A stretch of 64,000 nucleotides of DNA from the NCBI GenBank assembly GCA_964638715.1, contig CAZWZF010000020.1, positions 6,653 through 70,652 on the forward strand, in the 5' to 3' direction. The first letter of the stretch is position 1; each line of letters opens with the position of its first letter. Made by a program: the position numbers and the translations under genes. Source of the stretch: an uncultured bacterium. GTDB taxonomy: Bacteria; Armatimonadota; Hebobacteria; CAIYQO01. Under the pieces are notes generated by a model, which saw nothing but the letters and a program-made list of their open reading frames with translations, was not told the origin of the DNA and searched no databases. Shown here piece after piece: positions 9,253-46,099 of this stretch.

Positions 9253-9295
9253 GATTTTTTTTTATCCATGTTAATTTTCTCCCGTAACCAAGTCA

Positions 9296-9332
9296 CAAAA
9301 AAGCGGGGCGGATTTCTCCGTCCCGTTTAAGT
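9296..9332 (-). terminator. Probable terminator between the convergent lipoprotein and lpxA genes
   Basis: The minus strand reads aaacgggacggagaaatccgccccgcttttttgtg, an imperfect GC stem followed by a U-run. On the plus strand a T9 run directly follows the lipoprotein stop (9254-9262). Confidence 0.45.
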
Positions 9333-9389
9333 TGCATTTTGTTAAGTTATAAAAAGCCGGTGGCCGTGTTTCCCTTCTTTTCGTTTAAC

Positions 9390-10187
9390 TTAGCAGGATG
9401 AAACCATGCTTTTTTGTTCCAAATGTCTTCCTGATCGTCCGCTTAATTCCAGGAACTCTATGAACTCCTGTACTTCCGGGAAATCGTTGGGTTTTTCTTT
9501 TGCTTCTGCTATCAGTCTGCTCAGATTTCCTTTGTTCACTAACAATTTGAATATCTCTTTCAATTCGTTGCGGGTTTTGCTGCTGACATTGTTTCTGCGC
9601 AACCCGACTCCGTTAAGTCCAATTAACCGCATCGGATTTCCCTCTGCGATTACAAATGGCGGCACATCGTGGGTAATTTTGCTGAGTCCGCCGACCATTG
9701 CCAGTCTGCCGATATGCACATTTTGATGTATGCCGGCCAGTCCACCGAGTACTACGCGATCATCTACCTGGCACCCGCCGCTGATTCCCACGTAATTTGT
9801 AATGTAAATGTTATTGCCAATTTTACAATTATGCCCAATATGGCTGTATGCCATCAGCATATTGTTATCGCCAATAACGGTCATGCAGCATTCGCCAACT
9901 GCGGAATGCACAGTAACGAACTCGCGAATGATGTTGTTGTCACCAATTATCACCCCGGATTTTTCGCCGTGATATTTTTTATCCTGGGGTGGTTCTCCCA
10001 ATACGGCGTGCGGGGATATGTGACAATCATTGCCGATTTTTGTGAGTCCTGAAACGATAGTGTGAGGCCCTATGACAGTACGGTTGCCGATATTAACATC
10101 GGGACCGATTACCGCGTAAGGGCCAATTTCAACGTCATCGCCCAGCACAGCACGCACATCGACTATTGCTGTGGAATGAATTTTCAA
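9390..10187 (-). CDS. lpxA: Acyl-ACP--UDP-N-acetylglucosamine O-acyltransferase LpxA
   Basis: Hexapeptide-repeat left-handed beta-helix protein (KIHSTAIVD...IGPYAVIGPDVNIGNRTVIGPHTIV...). The start is a TTG 5 nt downstream of the fabZ stop, with AAGGAAGGG 7 nt upstream. The track's ATG at 10250 lies inside fabZ. Confidence 0.9.
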   Translation of the reverse strand: MKIHSTAIVDVRAVLGDDVEIGPYAVIGPDVNIGNRTVIGPHTIVSGLTKIGNDCHISPHAVLGEPPQDKKYHGEKSGVIIGDNNIIREFVTVHSAVGECCMTVIGDNNMLMAYSHIGHNCKIGNNIYITNYVGISGGCQVDDRVVLGGLAGIHQNVHIGRLAMVGGLSKITHDVPPFVIAEGNPMRLIGLNGVGLRRNNVSSKTRNELKEIFKLLVNKGNLSRLIAEAKEKPNDFPEVQEFIEFLELSGRSGRHLEQKSMVSSC

Positions 10188-27833: not shown

Positions 27834-28023
27834 ATTAAGATAAAATTTGATATAGTAATAAAATTTTTAACAAAAACTAAGAACCTAACCCCTAAACTCC
27901 TAACCCCTAAAATGCAACTATTCCACCCCAAATAAGGTATAATAAAGCATAATGACCTGCTGTTACGTCCGGGGTTTTGTGGAATAATTCTCTACCGCAC
28001 CCTGTAACGAGGAAGGATTGTTG

Positions 28024-29595: not shown

Positions 29596-29682
29596 GTAGG
29601 GGCAGGTTCGTAACCTGCCCATGTGACCGTAACGCAGTTCGGTCGCTGAGTTTGTCGAAGTGGACATGCAAAAGGAAAAAAG

Positions 29683-31020
29683 ATGAATATCAAATCATTA
29701 ATAAAATATCAACTTGTCGCATTGCTGGTGACAGCATTTATCAGCGCAATGCCGCAGGCGCCGACACCAACTCCAACAACACCTACACCCGTTGTAGATG
29801 CACCGGTAAAAAAGCCAAATGCAAAAGCCGTCATCCAGATATGGATGTGGGGCGGTCCGTCGCATCTCGACACTTTTGACCCCAAGCCGGATGCCGGTTA
29901 CGACTATTCCGGTCCGCTGAAAAATCCGATACAGACAAATGTGGAAGGTATTAAGATAAGCGAATTGCTGCCTTTATTGGCACAGCAGGCCGACAAATAC
30001 GCCATCATTCGCAGTATGACCCACGGCAGCAATTCTCACGAAACTGCGGCATATATGATGCAGACCGGCCACGAACCGGGAGTTGGTTTGGTTTACCCAT
30101 CATGTGGCGCGATAGTATCCTGTTTTAAGGGGTACGACCATGGCTACACCGGCATGATTCCGCCGTATATCGTGCTTACCGAAGGGCAGGGACGCTTTGC
30201 TGAAGAAGGATTTTTAGGCCCGAAATACAAACCATTCATCACCGGCGGTGACCCCAGCAGAACGCCATTCGCGGTAGAAGGAATCATTGCCGCCGATATA
30301 ACCGATCAACGCCAGCAGGCCCGGCGCGAATTGATGCACAATTTAGATACCCTTGGCATCGCTATTCCTGACAATCCTGATTTTGTAACAGCAAAAAAAT
30401 GCGAAGATAAAGCATACGATTTAATTTTAGGCAATGCCCGCAAGGTATTCGACCTGACCCAGGAAACTGATGAAATGCGCGACAAATATGGACGAACGAA
30501 GTTCGGACAGGAATGCCTGGTGGCGCGGAGACTGGTCGAAAGCGGCGTGCCTTATGTAACAATCAATTATGGCGGTTGGGATACCCACAAACAACATTTT
30601 GAAGCGATGAAACAAAAATTGCCCGACCTGGACCGCGGCATGTCGGCATTATTGCAGGATTTATCTGATAAAAAATTGCTTGATACCACCATCGTATGGT
30701 GGGGCGGCGAATTCGGTAGAACCCCGAAAGTATCCTGGGAAGCCCCGTGGAATGGCGGACGCAGCCATTACGGCAATGTCTTTTCCGTTGTTCTTGCTGG
30801 TGGTGGATTTCAGGGTGGCAAGGTTGTTGGCGCGTCTGACGCAAAAGGCGAAAAAGTAGCTGACCGTCCGGTTTACCCGCGCGATTTAATCGGCTCTATT
30901 CTGGAACGCCTTGGTATCGACCCCGACGCCAAGTTGCCCAATGACAAGGGTCTGGATTTAAAAGTCATGCCTTCCACCGATAATAAACCAGGTGCTGGCC
31001 GCTTGAAAGAGATAATGTAG
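29683..31020 (+). CDS. DUF1501 domain protein (sulfatase-like fold)
   Basis: 445 aa with ...IQIWMWGGPSHLDTFDPKP..., a central GWDTH and C-terminal WWGGEFGRTP blocks characteristic of DUF1501. It follows the DUF1549/DUF1553 gene after 87 nt. Confidence 0.8.
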   Translation: MNIKSLIKYQLVALLVTAFISAMPQAPTPTPTTPTPVVDAPVKKPNAKAVIQIWMWGGPSHLDTFDPKPDAGYDYSGPLKNPIQTNVEGIKISELLPLLAQQADKYAIIRSMTHGSNSHETAAYMMQTGHEPGVGLVYPSCGAIVSCFKGYDHGYTGMIPPYIVLTEGQGRFAEEGFLGPKYKPFITGGDPSRTPFAVEGIIAADITDQRQQARRELMHNLDTLGIAIPDNPDFVTAKKCEDKAYDLILGNARKVFDLTQETDEMRDKYGRTKFGQECLVARRLVESGVPYVTINYGGWDTHKQHFEAMKQKLPDLDRGMSALLQDLSDKKLLDTTIVWWGGEFGRTPKVSWEAPWNGGRSHYGNVFSVVLAGGGFQGGKVVGASDAKGEKVADRPVYPRDLIGSILERLGIDPDAKLPNDKGLDLKVMPSTDNKPGAGRLKEIM

Positions 31021-31037
31021 GCTTGAGGAGTATCACT

Positions 31038-33383
31038 ATGAATTTGCTCACGCGATTAATTATATTAACATCATTGTTTGCCGGGTCTCTTGCATTATTG
31101 CATGCGGCAAATGAACCATACATAGCCTACGTTTATCCTGCCGGCGGTCAGCAAGGCACCACCTTTCAGGTTACTATTGCCGGCCAGCGCCTGCGCGGTG
31201 TAAATACCGTATATTTCACCGGCAGCGGTATAAAAGCATCTATTCTCGACTACACACCTGCTAATGGCAAACTAAATAAATTGCAGGAAGAAGAATTGCA
31301 GAAGCGCCTTCAGGAAATTAGAAAAACGCGTTTAGATGAAATGCGCAATAAGAATAAAAAACCTGCTCCAGTTGCACCAGTTACTAATCCTGCTGCACCT
31401 GTGACCGCTCCTGTTGTACCAGCCACTGCTACTCCTGCTGTGCCGCCAGCGAATCCACCAGTTGTTGCACCAGGAACAACTCCCGCCGCCACACCAGCAG
31501 AACCGCCAGTTGTTACACCGCCGCCAATCGTACTGCCTGATTTACCGGAACTTCGCAATCTGGACCAGATGACAATTAAACAGCTTCAGCAAGTATATGA
31601 TAAATTTTTAAACAAGCAAAAACAGCCAAAAGCGCCTATGAATGAAATAGTGGTGATTGAAGTGACCATTGACGCCGATGCAGCCATCGGTAATAGAGAA
31701 TTGCGTCTTCGTACCCCTGCGGGCGGATTGACGAACCCGATGATGTTTCAGGTGAGCAATCTGCCGGAGATGCACGAACCAACCGAATATGATACCCCGC
31801 CAGAAAATCCAGTACCACTGACAGCACCCGCTGTATTAAACGGGCAAATAATGCCTGGCGAGGTAGATAAATATAATATACAGCTAAAAGGCGGGCAAAA
31901 ACTGATCATCGCCGCCCAGGCACGCAACCTGATACCATATATCGCGGATGCCGTGCCGGGATGGATACAGGGAATACTCACCATCAGCGACTCTACCGGC
32001 AAGGAGTTAGCATTTAACGACGACAACGGGTTCGACCCCGACCCGATATTATATTTCAATGTTCCGCAGGATGGGAATTACACCATAAAATTCCGCGACT
32101 CCATTTACCGCGGACGCTGGGATTTCGTCTATCGTATCTACATCGCGGATCAACCGGCAATGCAGGTATTATTCCCCACCGGCAGCCGCGTTGGCATGTC
32201 AATGAATAATGTACCGGCAGACTGGGGAGTAACCGTAAAACCACCGATGACAGACGTGCAATTCCCGGAATTGCCGCGTGCTGCCGAGGTAGAACCGAAT
32301 AATACCATCGAGAAAGCACAGGCTATCACCATACCGGTAGTAATAAATGGCTGCATCAACAGCAGCGACACCGATTATTACAAATTTACCGGCAGCACCG
32401 GCGATACCATTGTCGCTGCGGTATATGCCCGGCAATACGGGTCGCAGTTAGATTCCATATTGCGGTTAACCGATGCCGCCGGCAAGGTTGTCGCGTCGAA
32501 TGACGACTTTGAAAATAAAGACCTGGGATTAATGACCCACCATGCGGATTCTTACCTGATGATAAAATTGCCGGCAAACGGAATATATTACCTGCAGATA
32601 ACCGACGCAGAACGTCACGGCAGCGATTTATTCACTTACTCACTGCGGGTCAGCCCGCCGCAGCCAGATTTCTCGCTGACTATCTCGCCATCGTGCGTCA
32701 ATGTGCCACCGGGACGACCGGGAATTATCACAGTATCCGCGGTACGCAAAGATGGCTGGGATGGCGACATCGAAGTAGCATTAAAGGATGCGCCTGCCGG
32801 ATTCTCACTGGGCGGAGCAGTTATCCCACACGGTAAAAACAGCATACGAATGACCCTGACAGCACCAGATAAAAAATCTGAACAGCCTATCAGTATAAAT
32901 CTGGAAGGCCGTGCCACCGTTGGAGACAAAGTAATTACCCGCTCGGTAATCGCCGCCGATAACGTAATGCAGGCATTTGCGTATATGCACCTGGTACCGT
33001 CACAAAATCTGGAAGTCGCCATTGCCGGCGGACGCAGAGCACCGATTATCATCCTGCTAAACAAAGACCGCCTGAAAATCCCTTCCGGCGGAACGGCAAT
33101 AACCACCATCACCATCGTACCGGCAATAAACATAAACTTGCCTATCAGCATAGAATTAAGCGACCCGCCGGCAGGAATAACCCTGAAAGACGCCAGCAAC
33201 ACCGCGCAGGGAATAGTGCTGACCTTCGCCGCCGATGATAAACACACCGGCACCATCGACAACCTGATAGCAGAAGTATTCACCACCATAGATGTTCCTG
33301 ACAAGAAAACCGGAACCACAAAAAAACAAAGAGTCTCCGCCGGAGTATTGCCGGCAATACCGGTTGAGGTGGTGAAACAGTAA
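31038..33383 (+). CDS. Secreted protein with a Pro/Ala/Val-rich linker and two bacterial pre-peptidase C-terminal (PPC)-like domains
   Basis: The start is an ATG preceded by GAGGAG (signal peptide MNLLTRLIILTSLFAGSLALLHA). The linker is PAPVAPVTNPAAPVTAPVVPATATPAVPPANPPVVAPGTTPAATPAEPPVVTPPP. There are two PPC-like modules (DKYNIQLKGGQKLIIAA...NDDNGFDPDPILYFNVPQDGNYTIKF and DYYKFTGSTGDTIVAAVYA...NDDFENKDLGL...ANGIYYLQI). Confidence 0.6.
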   Translation: MNLLTRLIILTSLFAGSLALLHAANEPYIAYVYPAGGQQGTTFQVTIAGQRLRGVNTVYFTGSGIKASILDYTPANGKLNKLQEEELQKRLQEIRKTRLDEMRNKNKKPAPVAPVTNPAAPVTAPVVPATATPAVPPANPPVVAPGTTPAATPAEPPVVTPPPIVLPDLPELRNLDQMTIKQLQQVYDKFLNKQKQPKAPMNEIVVIEVTIDADAAIGNRELRLRTPAGGLTNPMMFQVSNLPEMHEPTEYDTPPENPVPLTAPAVLNGQIMPGEVDKYNIQLKGGQKLIIAAQARNLIPYIADAVPGWIQGILTISDSTGKELAFNDDNGFDPDPILYFNVPQDGNYTIKFRDSIYRGRWDFVYRIYIADQPAMQVLFPTGSRVGMSMNNVPADWGVTVKPPMTDVQFPELPRAAEVEPNNTIEKAQAITIPVVINGCINSSDTDYYKFTGSTGDTIVAAVYARQYGSQLDSILRLTDAAGKVVASNDDFENKDLGLMTHHADSYLMIKLPANGIYYLQITDAERHGSDLFTYSLRVSPPQPDFSLTISPSCVNVPPGRPGIITVSAVRKDGWDGDIEVALKDAPAGFSLGGAVIPHGKNSIRMTLTAPDKKSEQPISINLEGRATVGDKVITRSVIAADNVMQAFAYMHLVPSQNLEVAIAGGRRAPIIILLNKDRLKIPSGGTAITTITIVPAININLPISIELSDPPAGITLKDASNTAQGIVLTFAADDKHTGTIDNLIAEVFTTIDVPDKKTGTTKKQRVSAGVLPAIPVEVVKQ

Positions 33384-33632: not shown

Positions 33633-36600
33633 ATGGCTTCTTTAAATATAAATGACATTGTTGTAATTAATAAAGGTACTCTCGACCCGGATTTAGGCAT
33701 AGATATCGGGGGTTGGCAAGGTAAAATTACCGAATTCGAGGTTGAGAATGATGAGCAATTTGCTTGTGTTGAATTAGACGATTTTACCATTCTTAACATG
33801 GCTGATTGGATTATTAAATTCTGCGATGAAGAACGAATGGACATGGCATTGTTAAGAGTAGCGGTTGTTAACTTAACACCAGCCAAACCTGATGAAATAA
33901 AAGCGCACATTTTACAGAAAGCCGCTGAATTAGGTTCTCAATTCCATGATTTAACGCTTGAAGATGTTAAACTGCTTGCCGATTCAAATACAATATTCAA
34001 ACGCGGTAAAGACTATTATAATTCGGGAGCAATCCTGCATTATATAATATCCAATGGCAAAATCACCGCTCATGTTGAAGGAAGTTATAGCAATTATATA
34101 GTACATGCCGCTGAAGGACCAAGGGATATAAAAACGAATTGCACATGCCCATACGAAGGGGATATCTGTAAACATATCGTAGCGGTGCTGCTGAAAACTG
34201 TAAATGAAATTGCAAAAAGCAAACAGCTTTCCTTTGCTGAACTAATGAAAAATGGACCGGTATTAATATCAAAAACACCGAATATTAATGAAGTTAATAA
34301 TGCTATATCAACTGTTCAAACCCGGCATCAGCAAACAACTTCTGCCAATGATGAAATAGAGATAGCGACCCCGGAACCGATAGAGGAAATAGTTCCTGAA
34401 ATACAATCGCATTTGCTTGATATATTTCGGAAAGCTAAATCATTGACCCCGCTTTTTACCCGGGTAAACCATCGTGCCCACCCCATGGGAAAAGAACTAT
34501 TTCATAAAAAAGCTGCCGTATTGAATCATATAACAAATACTGCGGCTGAATTTGATGTTATAGAAGATGAAAAACTTTTATATCGGGTGAAAATAGTAAA
34601 CGATACGGATAGCCTGAGTGCGACAAAGATGTATTGCACCTGTTCCGGTTCGCGGGGGTACGGGTCGTATAATACTTGCGTTCATCAGGTAGCGGCAGTT
34701 TTCGCTCTGCATAAATTAGCTACGGATAATATCTCGCTGGAACAACAAAAAGCTGATACCGCATCAATATGGGAATCAAAATTATCCAATTTAATAGAAG
34801 GAACGAAAGCTGTAAAAAAACATCCATCAACTGCCGCAATACTGGCATTTTGTCTGAAAACAAATATTTCAACCGAAAAATGGAACTTAAAGGCATATAC
34901 CATCGCCACCTCGCATTTTGATGAAGATATTTTAAATGACCGGGCAGCGCTGCAAAATGCCATCTCTACCACCTTTAACTATCAAACAGCAAAAGAAATA
35001 TCACAATACAGTGCAATTCCGACAAACCTAATATATGGATCACCAGAATTAAACACCCTCGCGCGACTGGTAAGCCAGGCAAATTTTTATCACACCGGAA
35101 ATCCGCTGGAATTTTTGCTTCCTCAATTACGCAATGCGCTGGTATTTCATGGAGAACCGGATTATTACGGCAACCCATTTCTGCAGCCAATTATCGAGGT
35201 AGACCCCGAACCGCGAAAATTACTGCTTAATATTGAACAGGATGAAGTTAATATCTATATTCAACCCGCCATAATTGATGACGGAATTGAATATACATTA
35301 ACCCAGGAAGATACATCTATTGTTAATAATTCACCTTTGTGGATACTCGCGAAAAACAAGTTGCTGCTGATAGACGGCAATTATGAATTATTGCGGCGAC
35401 TATTGGAAACCCGCACGATAACAATACCTGTAGAAGGCAAGAAGAGATTCATCACCAACTATCTTCCCAAGCTGATTGACCGTGCTGAAGTATCTGGTGA
35501 TGCCATCGCCAACAAAATAGAATTGAGCGTAAAACCGGTAAACAGGGTTTATTTAACTGAAGACGAAAAATCTATCGTCGCTGAATTATCTTTCGGTTAT
35601 AATAATCTTGAGATACCGGCAGACACCTCCTGGCCGGAGAAATCGCTGCAATATGATGAAGATAGAAATATATTAGTCACAGTTACCCGCAATAAAGAAA
35701 TAGAGATGGAATCCTGGCGGATGATGAGTGAATTTGGCCTGAAACGCGACGGCGAACGCTTTATCCTCAGACAAAAAGTATCGCCGGTAGATTTCCTGCT
35801 GCGTCATCTGCCAAAAATGCAGGAATCCGGCTTTGAAGTGTTTGGCGAAGAAACATTGAAAAATAACCGGGTTAATAGAAATCAACCCCGGATGCGCATG
35901 TCGGTATCGTCTGGCATTGACTGGTTTGATGTAACGACAGTGGTCAGTTACGGCGATATAGAAGTCAGTTTGCTGGAAATCCGCAAGGCGCTTAAGCATC
36001 GGCAGGGATATGTTAAACTTCCTGATGGTTCGATGGGATTATTGCCGGATGAACTGTTAGCGCAATACCGCATGATATTCGCAATGGGACAAGAAACAGA
36101 GCAGGGAGTTCGCATGTCGAGAACCCAGGCTTCGCTGCTTGAATTAACATTAAGAAACACCGACGTGGTTACAGACGAGGAGTATACTAAACGCGTTGAG
36201 CAATTAAAAAACTTCACTCATATAGAAAACCGCCAGTTGCCAGCCAACTTCACCGGCGAATTACGGCATTATCAACAGGAAGGTTTCAACTGGCTGTATT
36301 TCCTGCATGATTACGGATTTGGCGGATGCCTGGCGGATGATATGGGCATCGGCAAAACGGTGCAGGCACTGGTTTTTCTGCAATCCCTGTTTGCCACCGG
36401 CCATACAAAATCCGCGTCGCTCATCGTTATGCCGCGCTCATTACTGGAAAACTGGGCACGTGAATCTGCCCGTTTCACCCCGGATTTAAAGGTGCTGATA
36501 CATGCCGACAATGACCGCAGCGACAGCCACACCTCATTTGACGGGTATCAACTGGTACTTACCACCTATGGCATTATGCTGCGCGATATAGAGTTGTTTA

Positions 36601-37643
36601 AAAAATATAAATTCCACTATATCGTACTTGACGAAGCACAGGTGGTAAAAAATGGCGTATCACAATCTGCCCGCGCCGCGCGACTGCTGCACTGCGAACA
36701 TCGACTGGCGTTAACCGGCACACCGGTAGAAAACTCTACCGAAGAATTATGGTCGCTCTTCGCCTTTCTCAATCCCGGGCAATTGGGCACTCAAAACGCA
36801 TTTCGCGATCAATTCGCCATTCCCATCCAACGTTATCAGGATGAAAAAGCGGCACAAATGCTGCGCGCGCTGGTACGCCCATTCATCCTGCGCCGAACCA
36901 AAGAACAGGTCGCGCCGGAATTGCCACCCCGCACAGAACGGCTTATTTTCTGCGAAATGTCAGCGGGTCAAAAGAAGATGTATGACCAAACCCGGGATAA
37001 ATACCGGGCAGAACTGATGGGATTAATTAAGAAAAGCGGCGTACAGCAGGCAAAACTGAAAGTATTGGAAGGCTTATTGCGGCTGCGGCAAATAGCGAAT
37101 GACCCGCGTCTGGTAGATAAAAGCTATGTCGGAGAATCATCAAAGTTCGAGGCTATTCTGGAAGCGATGGAAATACTGCGGGAAGAAGGGCATAAAGCAC
37201 TGATTTTCTCGCAATTCACCAGCATGCTAAAACTGCTGCGGACATCGATGGACGAACGCAAATGGCCATATTTATACCTGGATGGCAAAACGAAAAACCG
37301 CCAGGAAATGGTAGATAATTTTCAGACAGACGAAAATATCCCCTTCTTTCTCATTAGCCTTAAAGCAGGCGGAACCGGCCTGAACCTGACTGCCGCCGAC
37401 TACGTAATACATATTGACCCCTGGTGGAACCCGGCAGTAGAACGCCAGGCAACCGACCGAACCCACCGCATAGGACAGGAACGACCGGTAATGGTATACA
37501 AATTCATCGCCGAAGATACCGTGGAAAAGAAAATACTACTGCTGCAGGAAAAGAAACAAGCCCTGGTAAACCAGATAATCTCAACAGAAGCCGGCCTGAT
37601 GAAGTCGCTAACCCCAGACGACATCGCGGCGTTGTTTATGTGA
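33633..37643 (+). CDS. SNF2-family helicase with two SWIM zinc fingers and a long central region (1336 aa)
   Basis: Two SWIM zinc fingers are present: CTCPYEGDICKHIVAVLL at about aa 170 and CTCSGSRGYGSYNTCVHQVAAVF at about aa 325. The C-terminal about 480 aa is a SNF2 ATPase (LADDMGIGKTVQ, DEAQVVKN, TGTPVEN, helicase-C block LISLKAGGTGLNLTAADYVIHIDPWWNPA...QATDRTHRIGQ). Confidence 0.85.
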   Translation: MASLNINDIVVINKGTLDPDLGIDIGGWQGKITEFEVENDEQFACVELDDFTILNMADWIIKFCDEERMDMALLRVAVVNLTPAKPDEIKAHILQKAAELGSQFHDLTLEDVKLLADSNTIFKRGKDYYNSGAILHYIISNGKITAHVEGSYSNYIVHAAEGPRDIKTNCTCPYEGDICKHIVAVLLKTVNEIAKSKQLSFAELMKNGPVLISKTPNINEVNNAISTVQTRHQQTTSANDEIEIATPEPIEEIVPEIQSHLLDIFRKAKSLTPLFTRVNHRAHPMGKELFHKKAAVLNHITNTAAEFDVIEDEKLLYRVKIVNDTDSLSATKMYCTCSGSRGYGSYNTCVHQVAAVFALHKLATDNISLEQQKADTASIWESKLSNLIEGTKAVKKHPSTAAILAFCLKTNISTEKWNLKAYTIATSHFDEDILNDRAALQNAISTTFNYQTAKEISQYSAIPTNLIYGSPELNTLARLVSQANFYHTGNPLEFLLPQLRNALVFHGEPDYYGNPFLQPIIEVDPEPRKLLLNIEQDEVNIYIQPAIIDDGIEYTLTQEDTSIVNNSPLWILAKNKLLLIDGNYELLRRLLETRTITIPVEGKKRFITNYLPKLIDRAEVSGDAIANKIELSVKPVNRVYLTEDEKSIVAELSFGYNNLEIPADTSWPEKSLQYDEDRNILVTVTRNKEIEMESWRMMSEFGLKRDGERFILRQKVSPVDFLLRHLPKMQESGFEVFGEETLKNNRVNRNQPRMRMSVSSGIDWFDVTTVVSYGDIEVSLLEIRKALKHRQGYVKLPDGSMGLLPDELLAQYRMIFAMGQETEQGVRMSRTQASLLELTLRNTDVVTDEEYTKRVEQLKNFTHIENRQLPANFTGELRHYQQEGFNWLYFLHDYGFGGCLADDMGIGKTVQALVFLQSLFATGHTKSASLIVMPRSLLENWARESARFTPDLKVLIHADNDRSDSHTSFDGYQLVLTTYGIMLRDIELFKKYKFHYIVLDEAQVVKNGVSQSARAARLLHCEHRLALTGTPVENSTEELWSLFAFLNPGQLGTQNAFRDQFAIPIQRYQDEKAAQMLRALVRPFILRRTKEQVAPELPPRTERLIFCEMSAGQKKMYDQTRDKYRAELMGLIKKSGVQQAKLKVLEGLLRLRQIANDPRLVDKSYVGESSKFEAILEAMEILREEGHKALIFSQFTSMLKLLRTSMDERKWPYLYLDGKTKNRQEMVDNFQTDENIPFFLISLKAGGTGLNLTAADYVIHIDPWWNPAVERQATDRTHRIGQERPVMVYKFIAEDTVEKKILLLQEKKQALVNQIISTEAGLMKSLTPDDIAALFM

Positions 37644-37713
37644 AGACATTCATAAATGATTAAAACAACCCACATATTTAATCACAAAAACCTAATTCCT
37701 ATTAAATTAATTC

Positions 37714-37747
37714 GATAGCCCACAGCAACGCTGTGGGTCTGATTTAG
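37714..37747. repeat. REP-like palindromic unit ATAGCCCACAGCAACGCTGTGGG (left boundary of the R-M/accessory island)
   Basis: gatagcccacagcaacgctgtgggtctgattt has an 8-bp stem (cccacagc/gctgtggg). Related copies lie in inverted orientation at about 46216-46257 and about 11609-11650 (shared aattccatagccca). Confidence 0.45.
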
Positions 37748-37784
37748 ATAGATTATTTACGCTCTGTAGGAGCATAATTCCTCA

Positions 37785-39248
37785 TTACTTCACATTTGAT
37801 GCAGATGGTTTGTTATCTGCACGAGCATCAATAAGAATGATATCAGGATCATTATCTATTTCAAGTTCACGTAAAATGCTTTTTACACGTTTTTCTTCAT
37901 CTTCGGTGAAAAATACGATAACTTTTAATGATTTATTTGTTTGATTTGCAGTTTCATATACTTTAACCTGGTTTTCAAGGTTTTGTTTTAATTTAGAGTT
38001 TTTTGCTAGTTTAAACTCAACAAGTGATTTATCACGACTACCACGAGAGACTTTAAAATCAACTGGTCCACGACCATTATTAACCTCTCTATTGACATCC
38101 GATGGAGTCGCATACCATGTTAGTCGATAAAGGATTTGTAAATCTGACTCACGATGTATCGGCTCATCTCCTTTATCGAAAAGTCGATAACCATCATTGT
38201 GCTCAATAACTTGTTTTAAATAAAAAACTCGTTCTCGTGCTTCATCAAGAGTATCACCATGAATTTTATAAAAATCGGTATTTGATAAGATTTGTTCAAC
38301 AAACGTTTTCACCTGTGTAATAAATTGTTGTTCTGTTTCAGCAACATATTCATTACTAACATTTGCAGCTTCTTCACCATTATCTTCTTTATTACGAATA
38401 TAATAATCTATAATAGCAGGAAACCTTTGTATTGTGTTAAACCATGCAAACTCTTTATCTTTATTTTTTGATTTTTTAGATAATTGAGAGCGAAAATGAT
38501 AATCAATTTGACCTCGAAGTTGCTCATCTGGAATTGACGGTGGTATCTCATAATATCCTTTCTGTAATTCACAACGACTAATCCATGTTTCATGTCGAGT
38601 CAACATATCTTTTGGTGTCAAGATCACATAGTTTTTCCCATCAATTGTTGGTAAATAAAAAATATCTGTTTTCCAAATATTTTTATCATAGTCAAATCTT
38701 ACTTTATCTATACTGAACAATTGACAATATGATTTATCGATAAACTCACTGGCAAAATTTTGTGTGTAATTAAGTAAATATTCTTTTATTAAATTAACTG
38801 TGAAATCACTGATATTGTCGCGACCAACACCATTATCAATAAGACAAAGTTTTTCAAGGTGACTACCTTTAGTGATTTGTTCTTGTCCAAATGAAATGAA
38901 TTCATTGCGGAGATTTTGATATAATGAATATGCAAAATCTTTACCTAAACCAGAACCATTGTTTCCTACTGTAGAATATCCAAGCCAATTTTCCTTTACT
39001 TCTTTAAATGTAAACCACCGAAATAATAGTCCGTCAGAAATCGAATCAGAAACAGCTACATCGCGAAGAAATTGGAGATATCGAATTATCCCATCATGTA
39101 AATCCTGGTATTCCTGTTTTGAACTGCCAAATAATAAGAATGGGTCAATAAATAGCGGTAAATCATTAACCAATGATATATCAAAAGCACCATATTTTTC
39201 AAGAATATCTGGATCAACTTCAAAAAAATCTGAAAAGTAAATTAACAT
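37785..39248 (-). CDS. Hypothetical protein with a C-terminal PD-(D/E)xK nuclease-like motif
   Basis: 487 aa in AT-rich DNA. The C-terminal region reads ...HRESD(369)...GRGPVD(397)FKVSRGSRDKSLVE(411)FK(413)LAK, matching E/D...PD...(D/E)xK with 14-aa spacing. The N-terminal 350 aa has no recognisable motifs. Confidence 0.55.
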   Translation of the reverse strand: MLIYFSDFFEVDPDILEKYGAFDISLVNDLPLFIDPFLLFGSSKQEYQDLHDGIIRYLQFLRDVAVSDSISDGLLFRWFTFKEVKENWLGYSTVGNNGSGLGKDFAYSLYQNLRNEFISFGQEQITKGSHLEKLCLIDNGVGRDNISDFTVNLIKEYLLNYTQNFASEFIDKSYCQLFSIDKVRFDYDKNIWKTDIFYLPTIDGKNYVILTPKDMLTRHETWISRCELQKGYYEIPPSIPDEQLRGQIDYHFRSQLSKKSKNKDKEFAWFNTIQRFPAIIDYYIRNKEDNGEEAANVSNEYVAETEQQFITQVKTFVEQILSNTDFYKIHGDTLDEARERVFYLKQVIEHNDGYRLFDKGDEPIHRESDLQILYRLTWYATPSDVNREVNNGRGPVDFKVSRGSRDKSLVEFKLAKNSKLKQNLENQVKVYETANQTNKSLKVIVFFTEDEEKRVKSILRELEIDNDPDIILIDARADNKPSASNVK

Positions 39249-39306
39249 TATTTCTCCTAATTATGGGAACGATTAGTAAATATTTATTATGATTAATCAT
39301 CATTTC

Positions 39307-39906
39307 TCACACCTTCATTTTTTGCCATAAATAAACTTCAATATCTTTAATTGCATTTTTGAACTCTATAGAAAAGGCATCTTCATCTGATATATAAAAT
39401 AATATATTTGGTGGATTTTCATGAAGTAACTTTAAAATATCATCAGTTTTCTTTACTGAAAGTATCTTTAGGATTTGTACATACATCTTTTTAAATAACA
39501 TTTCAAATTTCTCAAATTTATTTATTACTTCATCTCCCCATAATACTTCAACTTCATTTTTTATCACATCATATTCAGCAACACATTGCATTACTTTATC
39601 CCAGCGTAAATTGTATACAGCTTTATAAACTTCAGCATCATTTATTTTATTATTATTCTCTATACCATATGTATTCAATGCATTAATTACTTCTACTCCT
39701 ATTAATGGATGTTGTCTTGTATTATAAATCGCATTTCTCACTTTATATACCGCAGCTAACATTTTAAGTGATAATTCATAAGATTTATTTCCTTTTAATT
39801 GTTTTCTCCATGTTTGAAGTCCTAACCAAGCAATAATAACAGCAAATAATGGAGCAACAACAGCAATAACATCTCTAATTATCGGCATAATATTATTATA
39901 TGACAT
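39307..39906 (-). CDS. Hypothetical single-TM protein translationally coupled to hsdS
   Basis: 199 aa with an N-terminal TM (IIRDVIAVVAPLFAVIIAWLGLQTW). Its ATG begins 2 nt after the hsdS stop (TAAAAATG). It is AT-rich, unlike hsdM and hsdR. Confidence 0.5.
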   Translation of the reverse strand: MSYNNIMPIIRDVIAVVAPLFAVIIAWLGLQTWRKQLKGNKSYELSLKMLAAVYKVRNAIYNTRQHPLIGVEVINALNTYGIENNNKINDAEVYKAVYNLRWDKVMQCVAEYDVIKNEVEVLWGDEVINKFEKFEMLFKKMYVQILKILSVKKTDDILKLLHENPPNILFYISDEDAFSIEFKNAIKDIEVYLWQKMKV

Positions 39907-39908
39907 TT

Positions 39909-41339
39909 TTATTTCCTCTTTTTACCAACCGTTACCACTTTCTTCTCCGCCTTTATCCTCCCCAACAATACCTTCGCCGGTTCGTCGTTCGGGTCTTGTG
40001 GTACCAGTTCACCGCGAAAGGCTTTGGCGAGGATGGATTGCGTGAGTCGGTCAACATGGGTTTTTGCCTGTTTGTAACGCGCTTCTACCTGGTCGGAAAA
40101 GGCGAATAAAGTTGTGACACGACGAACTATTTCTTGTTGTTCTTCAATTGGTGGAAGATTAACTTGTAATTCACGAACACGTTGACAATTGAGAGCCTGT
40201 GGTCCTGACCCATTACCTTCTTCACGATTCAATTCATAGCGATGTTGGAACCAATACCAAAGATACTCAGAATTAATAATATCAAATTGTGGAATTATTG
40301 CAGCAATATTTTGATTAATTGTCGCATCTATTTTCAAGATAGCAGTTTGACCACGAGTCTTACCCTCACCAATCATCGCTAATAATACTGTTCCTTTTGG
40401 AAGAATGTGAACTGAAGTTTTTTGATATCCAATTTCAGTAATTTGCTCTCGGGTATTAGTAATTTCATTGTTACGTACTTCACCTGAACTGACCCACGGT
40501 ATTGAACCACCCCAATATGTTAAATCTTTTCGGGATGGCGTACTACCATTACTGACTATTCCTATATGCCCAATATTACAACATAACCATGACATAGGTA
40601 ATTCTTTTTCTATATAACTATCAATATTAAGTGGATAATTGTTAACAAATTCATTAATAACTTTCAGTTCTCGTCCAGATAATGCATCATTTGAAAACCA
40701 TAATTTGCTTACTTTTAATAAAAGTTCAGAGGCATCCTCTTTTTCCCCAACTTCTTCTCTCCAATCCTCAGTCAACCTTCCAGAACACGCGGCGACAAGG
40801 ACGGACTGACGAAAACGTTTCAGGATGGTTGGCACTTTATCTATTTGGGCGCGACAGGCATCCACCCGCGCAAGTAGTTGCTCAAGTTTTGCGACTATTC
40901 TGTGTTGTTCTGGAAGAGGAGCTAAAGGAACATCAAGATTCCAAAACAATTCTGGATCAACATGTGGTATACCTGTACCCCGAGTATTTGAATTGATAGT
41001 ATCAAATTGTGATGTCAAGAAAAATCGTAAATAATCAGTATCAACTTCCTTTGGTGTCAATGCCATTATTGTAGACCCTATTGCACCCACTTGTCCTTTC
41101 CCGATCCAACCACTTCTTGCACCGTCCCAAACAACATAAATATCATTCTCATCAGTTAATCGTGATGATGATATCTCTGCATATTGCCTTGCAACACCTT
41201 TCTCAATAGCAAATATGTCAAGATAAGGAACGAAACCTTCTACAATCGTATCACGTTGTTGTTTAGGTTTTTTACCTTTCTTTTTTATGACAATTTCATC
41301 AAGACGAGTGGAAACCCACCCCTTCGGCAATTCACTCAT
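39909..41339 (-). CDS. hsdS: Type I restriction-modification system specificity subunit HsdS
   Basis: Two target-recognition domains separated by conserved repeats (LPPLPEQHRIVAKLEQLLARVDA... and LPPIEEQQEIVRRV...LTQSILAKAFRGELVPQDPNDEPA). The start was moved to the internal ATG (MSELPKGWVS) that overlaps the hsdM stop by 8 nt. The track ORF extends 135 nt into hsdM. Confidence 0.9.
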   Translation of the reverse strand: MSELPKGWVSTRLDEIVIKKKGKKPKQQRDTIVEGFVPYLDIFAIEKGVARQYAEISSSRLTDENDIYVVWDGARSGWIGKGQVGAIGSTIMALTPKEVDTDYLRFFLTSQFDTINSNTRGTGIPHVDPELFWNLDVPLAPLPEQHRIVAKLEQLLARVDACRAQIDKVPTILKRFRQSVLVAACSGRLTEDWREEVGEKEDASELLLKVSKLWFSNDALSGRELKVINEFVNNYPLNIDSYIEKELPMSWLCCNIGHIGIVSNGSTPSRKDLTYWGGSIPWVSSGEVRNNEITNTREQITEIGYQKTSVHILPKGTVLLAMIGEGKTRGQTAILKIDATINQNIAAIIPQFDIINSEYLWYWFQHRYELNREEGNGSGPQALNCQRVRELQVNLPPIEEQQEIVRRVTTLFAFSDQVEARYKQAKTHVDRLTQSILAKAFRGELVPQDPNDEPAKVLLGRIKAEKKVVTVGKKRK

Positions 41340-42750
41340 CAAAACTTCCCCCGTTGGAGTCGATAAGCAGCAATATCTCCTGCAAATCAATAACGGCGGC
41401 TTCCAATGCGGTGATGGCTTCGGCAGCCAGGTCTTGCGGTTCCGGCAAGGTGTCGGGGTCGTCGAGGGAGTCATCTTTCAGCCAGGTTATATCGAGTTTG
41501 TAATCCCGCGCCTTGATGTCGCTGATATGGAAACGGCGAAAACGGCATTCCTCGCCAAGGTCGGATCGCGGACTGGTACCGTTGGGGTTTGCGCCGTAAA
41601 CAGCCTCGAAATCGTCAAAATGCGCGGCAATTAACGGACGGTCTTTCTTGGTAATTCCAGGCACATTGCTGCGGGCATCGTAAATCCAGGTGTATTCGGT
41701 AGGCATCCCCTTTTGAAAGAAGATAACATTTGCCTTTACCCCCTGGCTGTATGGGGTAAAGGTGCCGCGCGGCAGCCGCAATACCGTATGCAGGTTGCAG
41801 TCCTGCATCAGCAATTCAAATACTTCACCCGCCTTGCCTTCAAACAGGCAGTTGTCCGGCAGCACCATTGCCGCCCGCCCGCCAGGTTTAAGGGTAGTCA
41901 CAACATGCTGGATAAAGTTCAACTGTTTATTGCTTGTCTCAATTGTAAAATCATCCCGCGCCGGCGCCTGATTCGCTCCCTTGGTACCAAAAGGCGGGTT
42001 GGTGAGAATGCAATCAAAACGTTCTGGGCCAGCCGGTTCGTAAATGGTATCGCCGAGTTTTATATGCGGTTCCACGCCATGCAGGTAAAGATTCATCAAC
42101 GCCAGCCGCCGGGGACGATGCACCAAATCCTGACCATAATAGGTTTCAAACTTTATATGACCGGCAATCTTTCTGTCCATTACTCCGCCGGTAATTTCTT
42201 TCAACCATTCATAAGCACAAACCAGAAAACCGCCGGTACCGCACGCCGGGTCGCAAATGGTGAAGCCGGGTGATACGCGCGGGTCGGGCTTCATTACTCG
42301 TACAATAGACTGAATCAATACCCGCGGGGTGAAATATTGCCCTGCTCCCTTTTTCCCCTCGCTGGCTGCCCTCTCCAGCAATCCCTCAAACGCCTGCCCC
42401 TTCACGTCAACATCCATGGCCGACCATTCTTCCTCGTCTATCATGGCTATAACGCGTTTCAGGTTAACCGGGTTGTTAAACCGCGGCATAGACTGGGCAA
42501 ATATATCGCCAAGTATCCCCGGTTCATCGCGCAATACCCGCAATGAATCGCCAAAATGGTCCATCAACTCCTGTCCCGACTTGCCGCAAAGCGTCTCCCA
42601 GTCATACCCGTCAGGAAGTTCCACATTACGTTCATGCGCCATCTTTAAAAACAGCAGGTAAGTAAGCTGCTCAATATAATCGCCATAATCAATGCCATCA
42701 TGCCGCAGCGTATGGCAAAATCCCCAAAGTTTATTTACAATGTCAGACAT
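41332..42750 (-). CDS. hsdM: Type I restriction-modification system DNA methyltransferase subunit HsdM (N6-adenine)
   Basis: N-terminal HsdM_N helix bundle, AdoMet motif I (DPACGTGGFL) and catalytic motif IV NPPFG in ILTNPPFGTKG. Confidence 0.9.
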   Translation of the reverse strand: MSDIVNKLWGFCHTLRHDGIDYGDYIEQLTYLLFLKMAHERNVELPDGYDWETLCGKSGQELMDHFGDSLRVLRDEPGILGDIFAQSMPRFNNPVNLKRVIAMIDEEEWSAMDVDVKGQAFEGLLERAASEGKKGAGQYFTPRVLIQSIVRVMKPDPRVSPGFTICDPACGTGGFLVCAYEWLKEITGGVMDRKIAGHIKFETYYGQDLVHRPRRLALMNLYLHGVEPHIKLGDTIYEPAGPERFDCILTNPPFGTKGANQAPARDDFTIETSNKQLNFIQHVVTTLKPGGRAAMVLPDNCLFEGKAGEVFELLMQDCNLHTVLRLPRGTFTPYSQGVKANVIFFQKGMPTEYTWIYDARSNVPGITKKDRPLIAAHFDDFEAVYGANPNGTSPRSDLGEECRFRRFHISDIKARDYKLDITWLKDDSLDDPDTLPEPQDLAAEAITALEAAVIDLQEILLLIDSNGGSFDE

Positions 42751-42868
42751 ATAATGTTTTCCTATATATTTGCGAATGATAACAACAACAATTCAATATT
42801 CCCCATGGAATTAATGTTAATTTAAAAAATTACAATAAAACTATTGATTTTAATATTTATAAATAATA

Positions 42869-43387
42869 TCAAACCTGACCAGTAATTTTTATAAACGTAT
42901 TAAATAGTGCTATTTTTGTTTTATTTTTTGTATCATATGTACAACTGCTAAACACTGTATCTCCTAATGACTTCATGCCATATTTAGGATAAGCAATGCT
43001 AAAACTCCATCTGCTGTTTTTTGGAAATACAGTTAGTGTGTAATCATCTATAACTAAATAATCATTCCCTTTAGCAGACATTTTCCAAACACGATTTAGC
43101 CACCGTTTACGTCTATTGGCAATATTTCTAAGTGCTCTTTCCCTATTTTCTGCATCAACATAATCATCAGACATTTTTTGAGCGCATACACTACCTACTC
43201 CTATCACATCAGGATAATCTTCATGTTTCATGTAATGAATATATCTTAGACCCTCATTTTCACACATCTCGCAAAATTGATAAGGAATAGCTTCTCCTTC
43301 TTCTAAATTTTCTCCAAGATCATGAACATCAACACACTCCCAACCCTTATGAGGTATATTAGGTTTATCCCATAATCCACTCATCAT
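42869..43387 (-). CDS. Hypothetical Cys/His-rich protein embedded between hsdR and hsdM
   Basis: 172 aa, AT-rich, with WECVDVH...FCEMCENEGLRYIHYMKHEDYPD...SVCAQKM (CxxC...HxxxH...C). It lies 18 nt downstream of hsdR and 118 nt upstream of hsdM on the same strand. No family recognised. It is possibly a zinc-ribbon/HNH-like fold. Confidence 0.5.
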   Translation of the reverse strand: MMSGLWDKPNIPHKGWECVDVHDLGENLEEGEAIPYQFCEMCENEGLRYIHYMKHEDYPDVIGVGSVCAQKMSDDYVDAENRERALRNIANRRKRWLNRVWKMSAKGNDYLVIDDYTLTVFPKNSRWSFSIAYPKYGMKSLGDTVFSSCTYDTKNKTKIALFNTFIKITGQV

Positions 43388-43405
43388 TTACCTCCATTAT
43401 TCTTT

Positions 43406-46099
43406 TCATACCGCCACAGCCTCATTAAGCTCTTCAATTAACCATTGCAGAACATCCGGCTGAAATACCCGTTGTGCCCGACCCAGCCCGCCGTGCTGCT
43501 CGAATACCGGAATAAGGTTAAGGTCATTTATATCTATGGTGAGATTTTCTACCAGGTGCTCGCGAATGTAACCAAGCCATGCCTGCTGTTCACTGGAGAA
43601 AGTTTTGCCTGTTGTCACCTGCTGCATAGCTTTATCAACGCGCTGTTCGGCGGTTAACAGCGGTTCTTCTTCGCGGGCGGCGTGTTTTACCATTGATATT
43701 ATATCTGCCAGCGCGATATGATACACTTCGCTGTGCGCGTCGCGCAATGCCGATTCCGGGAATCCCTGCATACCTAATTTTATTCTCAAATCATCCAGCA
43801 CTTCCGGCCGCCAACCGGCAGGACGTTTTAATAGAACCTGCAACCCGTCTATTTCATCGCGTTTTTCATTCACAAAACGGCTGAATGCAGTCAGGTAATC
43901 CTCGGGTTTAAGGGTGTTATCGCCAACGCGGAAAATGCGCTCTGACACGACGTTATCCTGTATATCGTTGGCAATCCAAAATGACCGTGGCGCGCGTTCG
44001 TAATTCACCAATAATTTCTGAAAATCAGAATTTCGCAGAAGATTCATTGTATCAATAAAGTTTCTATCCAGTCTTCCCGGCAATTCATTGGCAAATAGTT
44101 CCATATTGCCGTCGGATATTCCCCACTGCGCAAATGCGATACGGGCATTCCCGCTCATATCGCGGCTAATCCGGCGTAAGCGTTTTTGCAATACCCGGAT
44201 ATGATATTCGCGCTCAACATTCTGGTAAATATTCTCAATTACCTGAACAATACCAAGCGGGTCTTTAGGCGGCAGCGTAATTTGAAAATCGGTGGCATTA
44301 CGGAAATATTCAATGAGAGTACCATCAAAACAATCAAAAACGGTAAAGTTTGTCTTGTTAATATCAGTACAAAGCCGCGTACCACGACCAAGCATCTGTG
44401 TCCAAAGAATGCGCGACTTAACCGGACGCAGGAAAACGATAAACTCCAATGCCGGAATATCAACACCGGTGGAAAGCATATCAACGGTGACAACAATTTT
44501 TGGATTAGGTCGGTTGCGAAATTCGCGAATACGCTGCAAAGGACGGTCAACAGTGGGACTGCCGGTGATTTTCTGTACAAATTCATCACCGCGCTTGAAA
44601 ATATCGCGGCACTGCTGCACCAATTGGTCGGCATGCGAGGTATGCGGCAAATCGTTAGCCGCAAAAATCAGCATTTTGGGAAAACGCCCGGTTTCTTCCT
44701 CATGCCTCAGCGCATAACCAGCGATTTCCTGCATAATGCGCCGATTGCTGTCAGGTGCGGTAATGCGTGATTCGATATCAGAGGTATCAAATTGCCGTTC
44801 ATCTTCCAACCTGTCCTGAAACAAAGTGCCGGTTTCAGGATTAACAACCCCAACATTATCACCCTCGCGCAGAAAAACACCGTTCATGCGGACATCAGAA
44901 TGTATGCGCACAGCATCATAATCAACAAGATAACCATCTGCTATCGCTTCTTCAGTGGTATAGCGGTAAACAGGTTCGCCAAACAGGTTTACCGTATGAC
45001 TTGCCGGTGTCGCGGTAAGCCCAATCTTCAGCGCGTCAAAATGATCCATCACCTGCCGCCATATACCGAGTTCCTGCGAGGTATAACCACGGTGACACTC
45101 ATCAGCAATTATCACATCAAATGCAGATATTGGAATATCAAGAATATTTGCGTCTTCTTCTAAATCCGGGTCATTGGCATTTTGAGCGAATGAGTATTGA
45201 GGGCCATAAAGATTAATCGCCATCCGCTGAATAGTTGAAACGTATACGAAGGTTTGAGATTCTTTAGGCGAAGTCAGATAACTACCGGGCAAAACTTTCG
45301 GGTCGAAGGTTTGATTATCAGAATCTTCCAAATCTTCACGGCGAAATTGCTGATGAAAAACTTCGTATTCCTGATTGAACTTATTGCCATGTTGAGTTTG
45401 AAAAGAAGCAAATGCCATGACAGCCTGTGCCGCCAATGCGCGACGGTCTACCAGGAAAAGGATTCTCTTTGCAACTGTGGATTTCAACAAACGATATATC
45501 TGTGCAACCGTGGTGAATGTTTTCCCGGTACCGGTCGCCATAGCAACAAGAAAAGAACGCTGGCCACGGGTAATGCCATCTTCAACAGCTTCAATTGCTT
45601 CACGCTGATAATTTCGTATGCCTTGAATATTAACAGGATTATTGGCGAACCAATCATTTCGCGTTGAATGTGAAAACATCTCTTCGAGTGCGTGAATATT
45701 GTGATAATTTGCTAATCGCCGCGACATGGCACGGTCGTCGCGTATATCAATAAACCAGATAGTTTCGCCATTGGTAGAGTAGAGGAAGGGAACGCCGTAT
45801 TCACCCCATTTTCCTGCGTTGTTATGAATACCGCGGGAATAACGTTTTGCCTGTTCGAGAACATTATAAGGGTCTAATGCAACCTTTTTTGCTTCTATAA
45901 TCCCAAGAATTTTGCCATTTACAAAAAGTGCATAATCAGCCGGTCCGCTATCTGTCGGATATTCTTCAACAGCAACACCATGAAGACACGAACAATCCAG
46001 ACCATCCTGATACCGGATGATCTTCCATGGTGGGGTCATAGATTTCAAGCGGGCATCTATTCGCTTTTTTCTGGTTAGTTTCTCCGACTCATCAAACAT
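43406..46099 (-). CDS. hsdR: Type I restriction enzyme endonuclease/helicase subunit HsdR
   Basis: 897 aa with an N-terminal PD-(D/E)xK region (...YALFVNGKILGIIEAKK...), SF2 helicase motifs (MATGTGKTFT, DECHRG, TATP) and a C-terminal HsdR helical domain. Confidence 0.9.
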   Translation of the reverse strand: MFDESEKLTRKKRIDARLKSMTPPWKIIRYQDGLDCSCLHGVAVEEYPTDSGPADYALFVNGKILGIIEAKKVALDPYNVLEQAKRYSRGIHNNAGKWGEYGVPFLYSTNGETIWFIDIRDDRAMSRRLANYHNIHALEEMFSHSTRNDWFANNPVNIQGIRNYQREAIEAVEDGITRGQRSFLVAMATGTGKTFTTVAQIYRLLKSTVAKRILFLVDRRALAAQAVMAFASFQTQHGNKFNQEYEVFHQQFRREDLEDSDNQTFDPKVLPGSYLTSPKESQTFVYVSTIQRMAINLYGPQYSFAQNANDPDLEEDANILDIPISAFDVIIADECHRGYTSQELGIWRQVMDHFDALKIGLTATPASHTVNLFGEPVYRYTTEEAIADGYLVDYDAVRIHSDVRMNGVFLREGDNVGVVNPETGTLFQDRLEDERQFDTSDIESRITAPDSNRRIMQEIAGYALRHEEETGRFPKMLIFAANDLPHTSHADQLVQQCRDIFKRGDEFVQKITGSPTVDRPLQRIREFRNRPNPKIVVTVDMLSTGVDIPALEFIVFLRPVKSRILWTQMLGRGTRLCTDINKTNFTVFDCFDGTLIEYFRNATDFQITLPPKDPLGIVQVIENIYQNVEREYHIRVLQKRLRRISRDMSGNARIAFAQWGISDGNMELFANELPGRLDRNFIDTMNLLRNSDFQKLLVNYERAPRSFWIANDIQDNVVSERIFRVGDNTLKPEDYLTAFSRFVNEKRDEIDGLQVLLKRPAGWRPEVLDDLRIKLGMQGFPESALRDAHSEVYHIALADIISMVKHAAREEEPLLTAEQRVDKAMQQVTTGKTFSSEQQAWLGYIREHLVENLTIDINDLNLIPVFEQHGGLGRAQRVFQPDVLQWLIEELNEAVAV

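Follow-up and report, generated by a model that had tools for sequence, protein, structure and literature searches.

A DUF8370–DUF8371 protein with exchangeable effector domains, embedded in a type I restriction-modification operon, is a candidate single-protein defence gene

A 64,000-nucleotide (nt) stretch of DNA from an uncultured Armatimonadota bacterium (contig CAZWZF010000020.1, positions 6,653 to 70,652; hereafter the window, whose own numbering is used throughout) contains a type I restriction-modification (R-M) operon that ends in an AT-rich gene for a protein of 487 amino acids (aa), p487 (37785..39248, minus strand). We found that p487 belongs to a large protein family, known in Pfam only as two domains, DUF8370 (PF28123) and DUF8371 (PF28130). 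In this family, a conserved N-terminal part is joined to a predicted PD-(D/E)xK nuclease, to one of several other effector domains or to both, and the genes are recurrently embedded in R-M and DISARM operons with no conserved partner. On balance, we favour the reading that p487 is a candidate autonomous immune or abortive-infection protein that acts as a single polypeptide. In the mechanism that we propose, the first ~380 aa, including a helical linker, would form an infection sensor or switch that controls the C-terminal DNase. Infection would release the nuclease, probably by oligomerisation via the linker, and the released nuclease would cut DNA, stopping the phage at the cell's cost. As a piece of AT-rich foreign DNA, the gene would have entered the R-M operon at its 3′ end and would be co-transcribed with hsdRMS, so that the two defences would be inherited and expressed together.

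The family assignment comes from a search of 5.8 billion proteins, which returned more than 6900 homologues of p487. Among them is an identical protein, P0001 (family proteins are numbered P0001 onwards, and related loci L001 onwards), which carries both domains in precomputed annotations, the source of all PF28123 and PF28130 assignments given here. The best 120 homologues are full-length, share 56-62% identity with p487 and all contain PF28123 and PF28130. Homologues are annotated as 'hypothetical protein', save one 'Cas4/RecB-family exonuclease' (Joint Genome Institute, JGI) and one 'coiled-coil protein'. At least 565 GTDB species genomes have a copy, in phyla that include Chloroflexota, Acidobacteriota, Planctomycetota, Pseudomonadota, Bacillota, Nitrospirota, Cyanobacteria, Verrucomicrobiota and lineages of the candidate phyla radiation, and a full-length relative exists among phage protein families (PHROG family phrog_30194, 4e-28). 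Searches with the single p487 sequence against a local copy of Pfam, NCBIfam and PDB sequences gave no informative match. In PADLOC one match was real, to the profile PDC-M36A (E 3.5e-19), and it aligns residues 21-233 of p487 with profile positions 22-226; the N-terminal domain thus links the family to a PADLOC defence candidate. An earlier note on this DNA, made from the sequence alone, had called the first 350 aa of p487 unassignable, but they correspond to the DUF8370 module, and their first ~230 aa are related to PDC-M36A.

The evidence that most directly suggests an immune function is the exchange of the C-terminal domain among relatives. An all-against-all search, which covered 2465 representatives at E <= 1e-3, showed the first ~380 aa joined to C-terminal domains of other kinds, placed either instead of the nuclease or as an addition to it. 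Nine relatives have a TIR or SEFIR domain (P0139, P0174, P0208, P0217, P0187, P0160, P0163, P0177 and P0265), one has SIR2 (P0135), three have CHAT (P0131, P0173 and P0183), two have a caspase domain (Peptidase_C14; P0152 and P0156), one has the nucleoside phosphorylase domain PNP_UDP_1 (P0212), and two have the adaptor domain EAD7 (P0140 and P0156). Prokaryotic conflict systems that are already known use this same set of effectors, namely TIR, SIR2, CHAT/caspase, PNP, EAD7 and restriction endonuclease (REase) domains, and in them the role of EAD domains is effector recruitment (PMC7159879). Since the ~380-aa module occurs with swapped effectors, we infer that it is a constant sensor or switch that has been combined with interchangeable killing domains. 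Such a pattern is the signature expected of a sensor-plus-effector immune protein.

In p487 itself, the effector position is occupied by a predicted PD-(D/E)xK nuclease domain of the RecB/Cas4-like kind (aa 356-487; 37788..38183, minus strand). Its motif consists of E367, D397 (within GRGPVD), E411-x-K413 (within VEFK) and Q427xxxY431. These six residues are invariant in an alignment of 30 close homologues, in which D369 is also kept in at least 90% of the sequences. In a wider alignment of 69 sequences, comprising the query and 68 divergent representatives (to about 31% identity), the residues are retained in 61 (E367), 49 (D397, with gaps in a further 14), 49 (E411, with Asp in a further 4), 62 (K413), 46 (Q427) and 48 (Y431) sequences. 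In an AlphaFold2 (AF2) model made from the 30-sequence alignment (mean predicted local distance difference test score, pLDDT, 77), a helix begins at E367, D397 immediately precedes a strand, the strand after that carries the ExK residues, and QxxxY falls in the helix that comes next. The C-terminal domain is thus predicted to be a nuclease with a canonical PD-(D/E)xK core and the fourth motif of the RecB/Cas4 type. The predicted fold of the domain is restriction-endonuclease-like alpha/beta, with restriction endonucleases as its best match, although this fold evidence is modest. Of the 30 family members, 9 were weakly matched by the Pfam model PDDEXK_9 (best E 0.002, below its curated threshold), and one by the DpnII-MboI model. 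The earlier note had proposed the PD-(D/E)xK core from E367/D369, D397, E411 and K413; these positions proved exactly right, the residues are conserved, and the predicted fold is that of a nuclease. Apparent matches of a C-terminal domain profile to ankyrin and DARPin sequences in the PDB were spurious and involved the 'DVN..NGRGP' loop. Beyond the nuclease core, the protein has an invariant C-terminal tail (aa 474-487; 37788-37830, minus strand), D-A-R-x-D-N-K-P-S-A-S, which is conserved across phyla and in most cases ends in Ala; it might serve in interactions or mark the protein for degradation.

The most conserved part of p487 is its N-terminal module (aa 1-235; 38544..39248, minus strand), for which we propose a sensory or regulatory, and possibly an enzymatic, role. 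Six residues (D29, D35, P36, E83, D144 and D148) do not vary among 55-69 representatives with identities down to 30%, and H51, N96, H130 and E132 are each retained by at least 90% of them. Residue conservation in this module exceeds that of the nuclease motif in the divergent representatives. No relative of the module with a solved structure was found by sequence, profile or fold search. A profile of full-length divergent family members had no match among PDB sequences, and Foldseek searches of p487 against PDB structures and viral BFVD structures gave nothing significant, only weak RPB5-like matches. We likewise recognised no DNA-binding fold in the module. Further motifs were considered and rejected: apparent Walker A and HKD motifs have unconserved residues or the wrong spacing, and the second PD-(D/E)xK motif that might be read at E83-V-K85 fails because K85 is not conserved. 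Between the module and the nuclease lies the helical linker (aa 236-355; 38184..38543, minus strand), the least conserved region of the protein, which forms long helices at 242-350 in the AF2 model. The linker is also present in the effector-swapped relatives, whose alignments to p487 stop at about aa 380-395.

To examine gene contexts, we called open reading frames (ORFs) in 83 related loci, of which 81 were counted as independent, and identified HsdM, HsdS and HsdR proteins by multi-seed phmmer. Twenty-three of the 81 independent loci (~28%) have an hsd gene within 10 kilobases (kb), the distance used to define linkage, as do 12-14 of the 41 loci whose flanks extend for 5 kb or more on both sides. 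Type I systems number about one per genome, and the chance of finding one within 10 kb of a random gene is below about 1%. The linked hsd genes mostly share the strand of the family gene, and their arrangement varies. In L008, L009, L019 and L032 the order is hsdM, family gene, hsdS; in L016, L023, L024, L026 and L063 the family gene follows hsdS after gaps of 3-111 nt, and in L036 and L076 it is the next gene after hsdR. The gene for the closest homologue (62% identity) follows hsdM-S-R-YgjP (L001 and L004). Grouped at 40% identity, the partner HsdM proteins represent at least 10 subfamilies. Of the 24 linked members, 15 have a nearest relative that is itself R-M-linked, compared with 14 of the 58 unlinked ones, and this partial clustering suggests that embedding occurred repeatedly and independently.

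Two further copies are inside DISARM operons, between DrmD and DrmMI in L010 (6698-16240) and between DrmA and GmrSD in L040 (7065-13226). The family thus recurs inside or directly next to unrelated R-M and DISARM operons, and mostly on the strand of the linked hsd genes, the pattern on which inference of function from embedding is based. In L040, the DrmA protein contains DUF499 and the other neighbour is a GmrSD/HEC-05-like type IV enzyme, so that two embedded genes stand side by side. The remaining neighbours are heterogeneous; integrases, resolvases and transposases are the commonest, and plasmid copies adjoin Tn3 and VapBC (toxin-antitoxin) genes or an XRE regulator. No other gene family is common to more than nine of the 83 loci, so the family lacks a conserved partner. 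In 65 of 71 loci the family gene is AT-richer than its flanks (median -5.7 GC points), which is typical of horizontally mobile defence cargo. The suggestion in the earlier note that proteins of this type ride on type I R-M loci is thus supported, but its description of the genes as hard-wired to the R-M operon holds for the window and not for the family, in which the DNA fetched for ~70% of the loci contains no hsd gene.

Several observations weigh against an autonomous, infection-sensing defence protein. The family has no match among the validated PADLOC 2.0 defence models or the NCBIfam models, and we found no paper on DUF8370, DUF8371, PF28123, PF28130 or PDC-M36, nor any experimental characterisation of the family. 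The catalytic loop of the nuclease (residues 385-396) was modelled with low confidence, and the enrichment near R-M genes is set against a textbook background rate only and not a matched control. In addition, a sensor of fast-evolving phage proteins would not usually be as conserved as the N-terminal module, with its 55-60% identity across phyla and many invariant Asp, His and Glu residues. Alternatively, the module could have an enzymatic function or act by binding a host component or a small molecule. If it is a sensor, conservation this extreme suggests that what it detects does not vary (for instance a danger molecule derived from nucleotides, or a component of the host), as a phage protein would. 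That the DUF8370 module is an undescribed immune sensor or enzyme-switch domain, defining a large family of one-protein abortive-infection systems with plug-in effectors, is quite conceivable, and we put it forward more tentatively than the immune role of p487 itself.

The frequent linkage to R-M genes raises the question of whether p487 depends on them. In a PrrC-like arrangement, HsdMSR would hold p487 inactive, and a phage anti-restriction protein that disables the R-M system would unleash it. There is precedent in PrrC (bioRxiv 10.1101/2024.01.29.577857), and p487 resembles PrrC and RloC in that it would be a latent toxic nuclease in or at the end of an hsd operon, co-expressed with it as a second line of defence. 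The copy in the window is operonic with hsdS, and several of the R-M-linked copies (about 28% of fetched loci) lie inside the operon with overlapping or 3-nt junctions. However, PrrC is almost exclusive to R-M loci, whereas ~70% of the fetched copies of the p487 family are solitary in this respect, being alone on plasmids or transposons or in DISARM. Since these copies lack nearby hsd genes, a protein of this family must be able to work without HsdMSR. A specific protein-protein interface is also made unlikely by the diversity of the partner HsdM subfamilies. Finally, PrrC and RloC have an ABC-ATPase N-terminal domain and cut tRNA, while p487 has no sequence or model similarity to them, no Walker A motif, and neither ABC ATPase nor anticodon-nuclease features. 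We therefore regard control by HsdMSR as unlikely, although it fares best among the alternatives to an autonomous protein.

Slightly less likely again is that p487 is a type IV modification-dependent endonuclease of the Mrr or MspJI type, whose N-terminal module reads modified phage DNA and whose PD-(D/E)xK domain cuts it. An N-terminal domain followed by a restriction-endonuclease-like fold would suit such an enzyme, as would the adjacency to type I R-M genes, near which Mrr and McrBC, themselves with PD-(D/E)xK nucleases, are also found, and to DISARM, with its GmrSD neighbour in L040. Yet the same N-terminal module is also fused to TIR, SIR2, caspase/CHAT, PNP and EAD7 domains, which act on NAD+, proteins or nucleotides and not on a bound DNA site, so effector swapping argues against a simple combination of DNA reader and cutter. 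Moreover, no Mrr (including Mrr_cat), SRA, YTH/EVE, PUA, GmrSD or McrBC model in Pfam or PADLOC matched p487, and the module lacks a recognisable DNA-binding fold.

A different possibility is that p487 is the nuclease toxin of a two-gene module whose other component, acting as membrane sensor or antitoxin, is the 199-aa protein p199 encoded immediately upstream (39307..39906, minus strand), and the earlier note had indeed treated the two as a pair. They are tightly arranged in the operon and share the same extreme AT content, and p199 has a single transmembrane (TM) helix (residues 12-31, mean Kyte-Doolittle 2.38; the rest is predicted to be helical). Furthermore, the closest genomic relative, L004, encodes a 247-aa protein with an N-terminal TM helix (9182-9925, plus strand) 76 nt upstream of the family gene. 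This protein is not homologous to p199. In L046, a ~247-aa protein with one or more hydrophobic N-terminal segments (9138-9878, plus strand) is similarly placed (the gaps in L004 and L046 are 76-111 nt). Neither of these two proteins resembles the other or p199 in sequence, and neither has a Pfam match. The search of 5.8 billion proteins found only p199 itself, in the same organism, and the 83 related loci contain no homologue. A recurrent theme of small TM proteins upstream of the family gene was considered and rejected, as TM-containing upstream neighbours occur in just 7 of 60 cases. With no partner conserved in the family, a two-gene module is improbable. Instead, we regard p199 as a genuine ORFan, specific to its lineage, that sits at the junction with hsdS and may be another small embedded gene. 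Its single-sequence AF2 model was unusable (pLDDT 46). In three independent assemblies of the same organism (L088, L089 and L090), the contigs end inside the p199 gene, which hints at strain heterogeneity or a drop in coverage at this AT-rich junction.

Least probable of all is that the family has no defence role and consists of housekeeping or DNA-processing nucleases of mobile elements (for recombination, repair or addiction) that accumulate in variable regions, as the frequent integrase, resolvase and transposase neighbours, the AT-rich and horizontally mobile gene and the one 'Cas4/RecB-family exonuclease' annotation from JGI could suggest, since swaps to TIR, SIR2, caspase, PNP and EAD7 would make no sense for a repair or recombination nuclease, and the genes are embedded inside R-M and DISARM operons and not at the ends of elements.

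As a candidate autonomous defence protein, p487 can be compared with several known or proposed systems. PDC-M36 originates from a 'guilt by embedding' screen of BREX, DISARM and type I R-M systems (Payne et al., bioRxiv 10.1101/2024.01.29.577857). The N-terminal ~210 aa of PDC-M36A and p487 are homologous, both are embedded in R-M-type operons and both are candidates. However, PDC-M36 is a three-gene cassette (FAM_01399 followed by two FAM_00303 genes), whereas p487 is encoded by a single gene without such partners; neither p199 nor p172, a further small protein of the operon described below, had a PDC-M36 match in PADLOC. Only 226 of the 457 positions of the PDC-M36A profile are covered, positions 227-457 being unmatched, and p487 is thus not a PDC-M36 member. 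Shedu (SduA, DUF4263), which the earlier note had offered as an analogy, is likewise a single-protein defence system with a PD-(D/E)xK nuclease and an N-terminal regulatory region. The analogy turns out to be reversed, since the hallmark of Shedu is its nuclease, with N-terminal domains that vary, and the hallmark of the p487 family is its N-terminal module, with effectors that vary. Models for DUF4263/Shedu, Mrr, NucS and Cap4 in Pfam and PADLOC did not match p487 (for Shedu, at E <= 0.1). The Avs/NLR-like, vWA-MoxR and EAD-linked conflict systems share with the p487 family the REase, TIR, SIR2, caspase/CHAT and PNP effectors as well as EAD7 (Kaur et al. eLife 2020, PMC7159879), but the family differs from them in lacking STAND, MoxR or other NTPase domains and in having a core with no detectable relative of known structure. 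The core domain of p487 is thus structurally novel, while a sensor-effector gene embedded in an R-M-type operon would, by analogy, be an arrangement of a known kind.

If the family is indeed a defence system, the known immune repertoire of prokaryotes would gain a very widespread and compact module made of a single gene. Its naturally swapping effectors would provide an experimental handle, namely one sensor driving a nuclease, TIR, SIR2 or caspase domain. The triggers of most defence systems are largely unidentified, and the conserved sensor means that the trigger here may be a universal signal of infection. The locus is also a further clear case for 'guilt by embedding' as a route to the discovery of defence genes.

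The operon in the window comprises six genes on the minus strand (37785-46099), in the order hsdR, p172, hsdM, hsdS, p199 and p487. The hsdR gene (43406..46099) matches the Pfam domains HSDR_N, ResIII, Helicase_C and EcoEI_R_C, and hsdM (41332..42750) matches N6_Mtase (5.6e-63) and HsdM_N. The hsdS gene (39909..41339) encodes a 476-aa protein with two target-recognition domains (Methylase_S, 5e-38). Independent gene callers start this gene at 41339, so that the protein begins MSELPKGW and the gene has an 8-nt overlap with the hsdM stop; a longer ORF of 521 aa (39909-41474, minus strand) is an in-frame upstream extension that overlaps hsdM by 143 nt. The hsdS stop codon (TAA, 39909-39911) is followed by AA and then by the ATG of p199, a gene that was also predicted by independent gene callers. 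The junction reads ...AAGAGGAAA TAA AA ATG..., and the Shine-Dalgarno sequence of p199, AGAGGA, sits within the 3′ end of hsdS. From the 2-nt spacing, translational coupling of p199 to hsdS is plausible. The p487 gene starts 58 nt past the p199 stop and is preceded by AGGAG, and no terminator-like site was found on the minus strand between hsdS, p199 and p487. The chance of an open frame in such AT-rich DNA is ~5e-10 for the 200 codons of p199 and ~3e-19 for the 488 codons of p487, and because these probabilities are so small, both are real genes.

The overall GC content, with that at third codon positions (GC3) in brackets, is 26.3% (16%) for p199, 31.1% (17%) for p487, 33.3% (20%) for p172, 39.5% (27.5%) for hsdS, 45.7% (42.4%) for hsdR and 51.5% (57%) for hsdM, and the window as a whole has 43.8% GC. 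Sequence, GC content and Kyte-Doolittle analysis bear out what the earlier note had said of the order and spacing of the genes, the AT-richness of p199 and p487 and the single TM helix of p199. Its statement that the hsd genes have normal GC needs to be qualified, as it does not apply to hsdS, whose low GC is consistent with exchanged target-recognition domains. Moreover, there is a third AT-rich ORF, that of the near-orphan p172 (42869..43387), between hsdR and hsdM. The 172-aa p172 protein has a CxxC pair and a single homologue (47% identity) among the 5.8 billion proteins, encoded next to a gene for a DUF87/FtsK-like ATPase and not at an R-M locus. With p172, p199 and p487, the locus shows that R-M operons can gather several AT-rich foreign inserts at gene junctions.

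Converging on the p487 side of the operon is a gene for a 1336-aa helicase with SWIM, SNF2_assoc and SNF2 domains (33633-37643, plus strand). We considered it as a partner of p487 because SNF2 matches occur in 6 of the 83 other loci (7 with the window), and rejected it, as the flanks that were checked (L010 and L040) are those of DISARM, and the helicase in the window is on the opposite strand. The N-terminal half of the helicase gene is AT-rich (35-40% GC), and its PADLOC similarity to the DpdE and ZorD helicases is strong yet sub-threshold. In the metagenome assembly L089, the gene is split into pieces of 458 and 842 aa. Farther along, the plus-strand genes at 28018-33383 encode PSCyt2/PSD1, DUF1501 and PPC-domain proteins, a set that is typical of Planctomycetota and the wider Planctomycetes-Verrucomicrobia-Chlamydiae (PVC) group.

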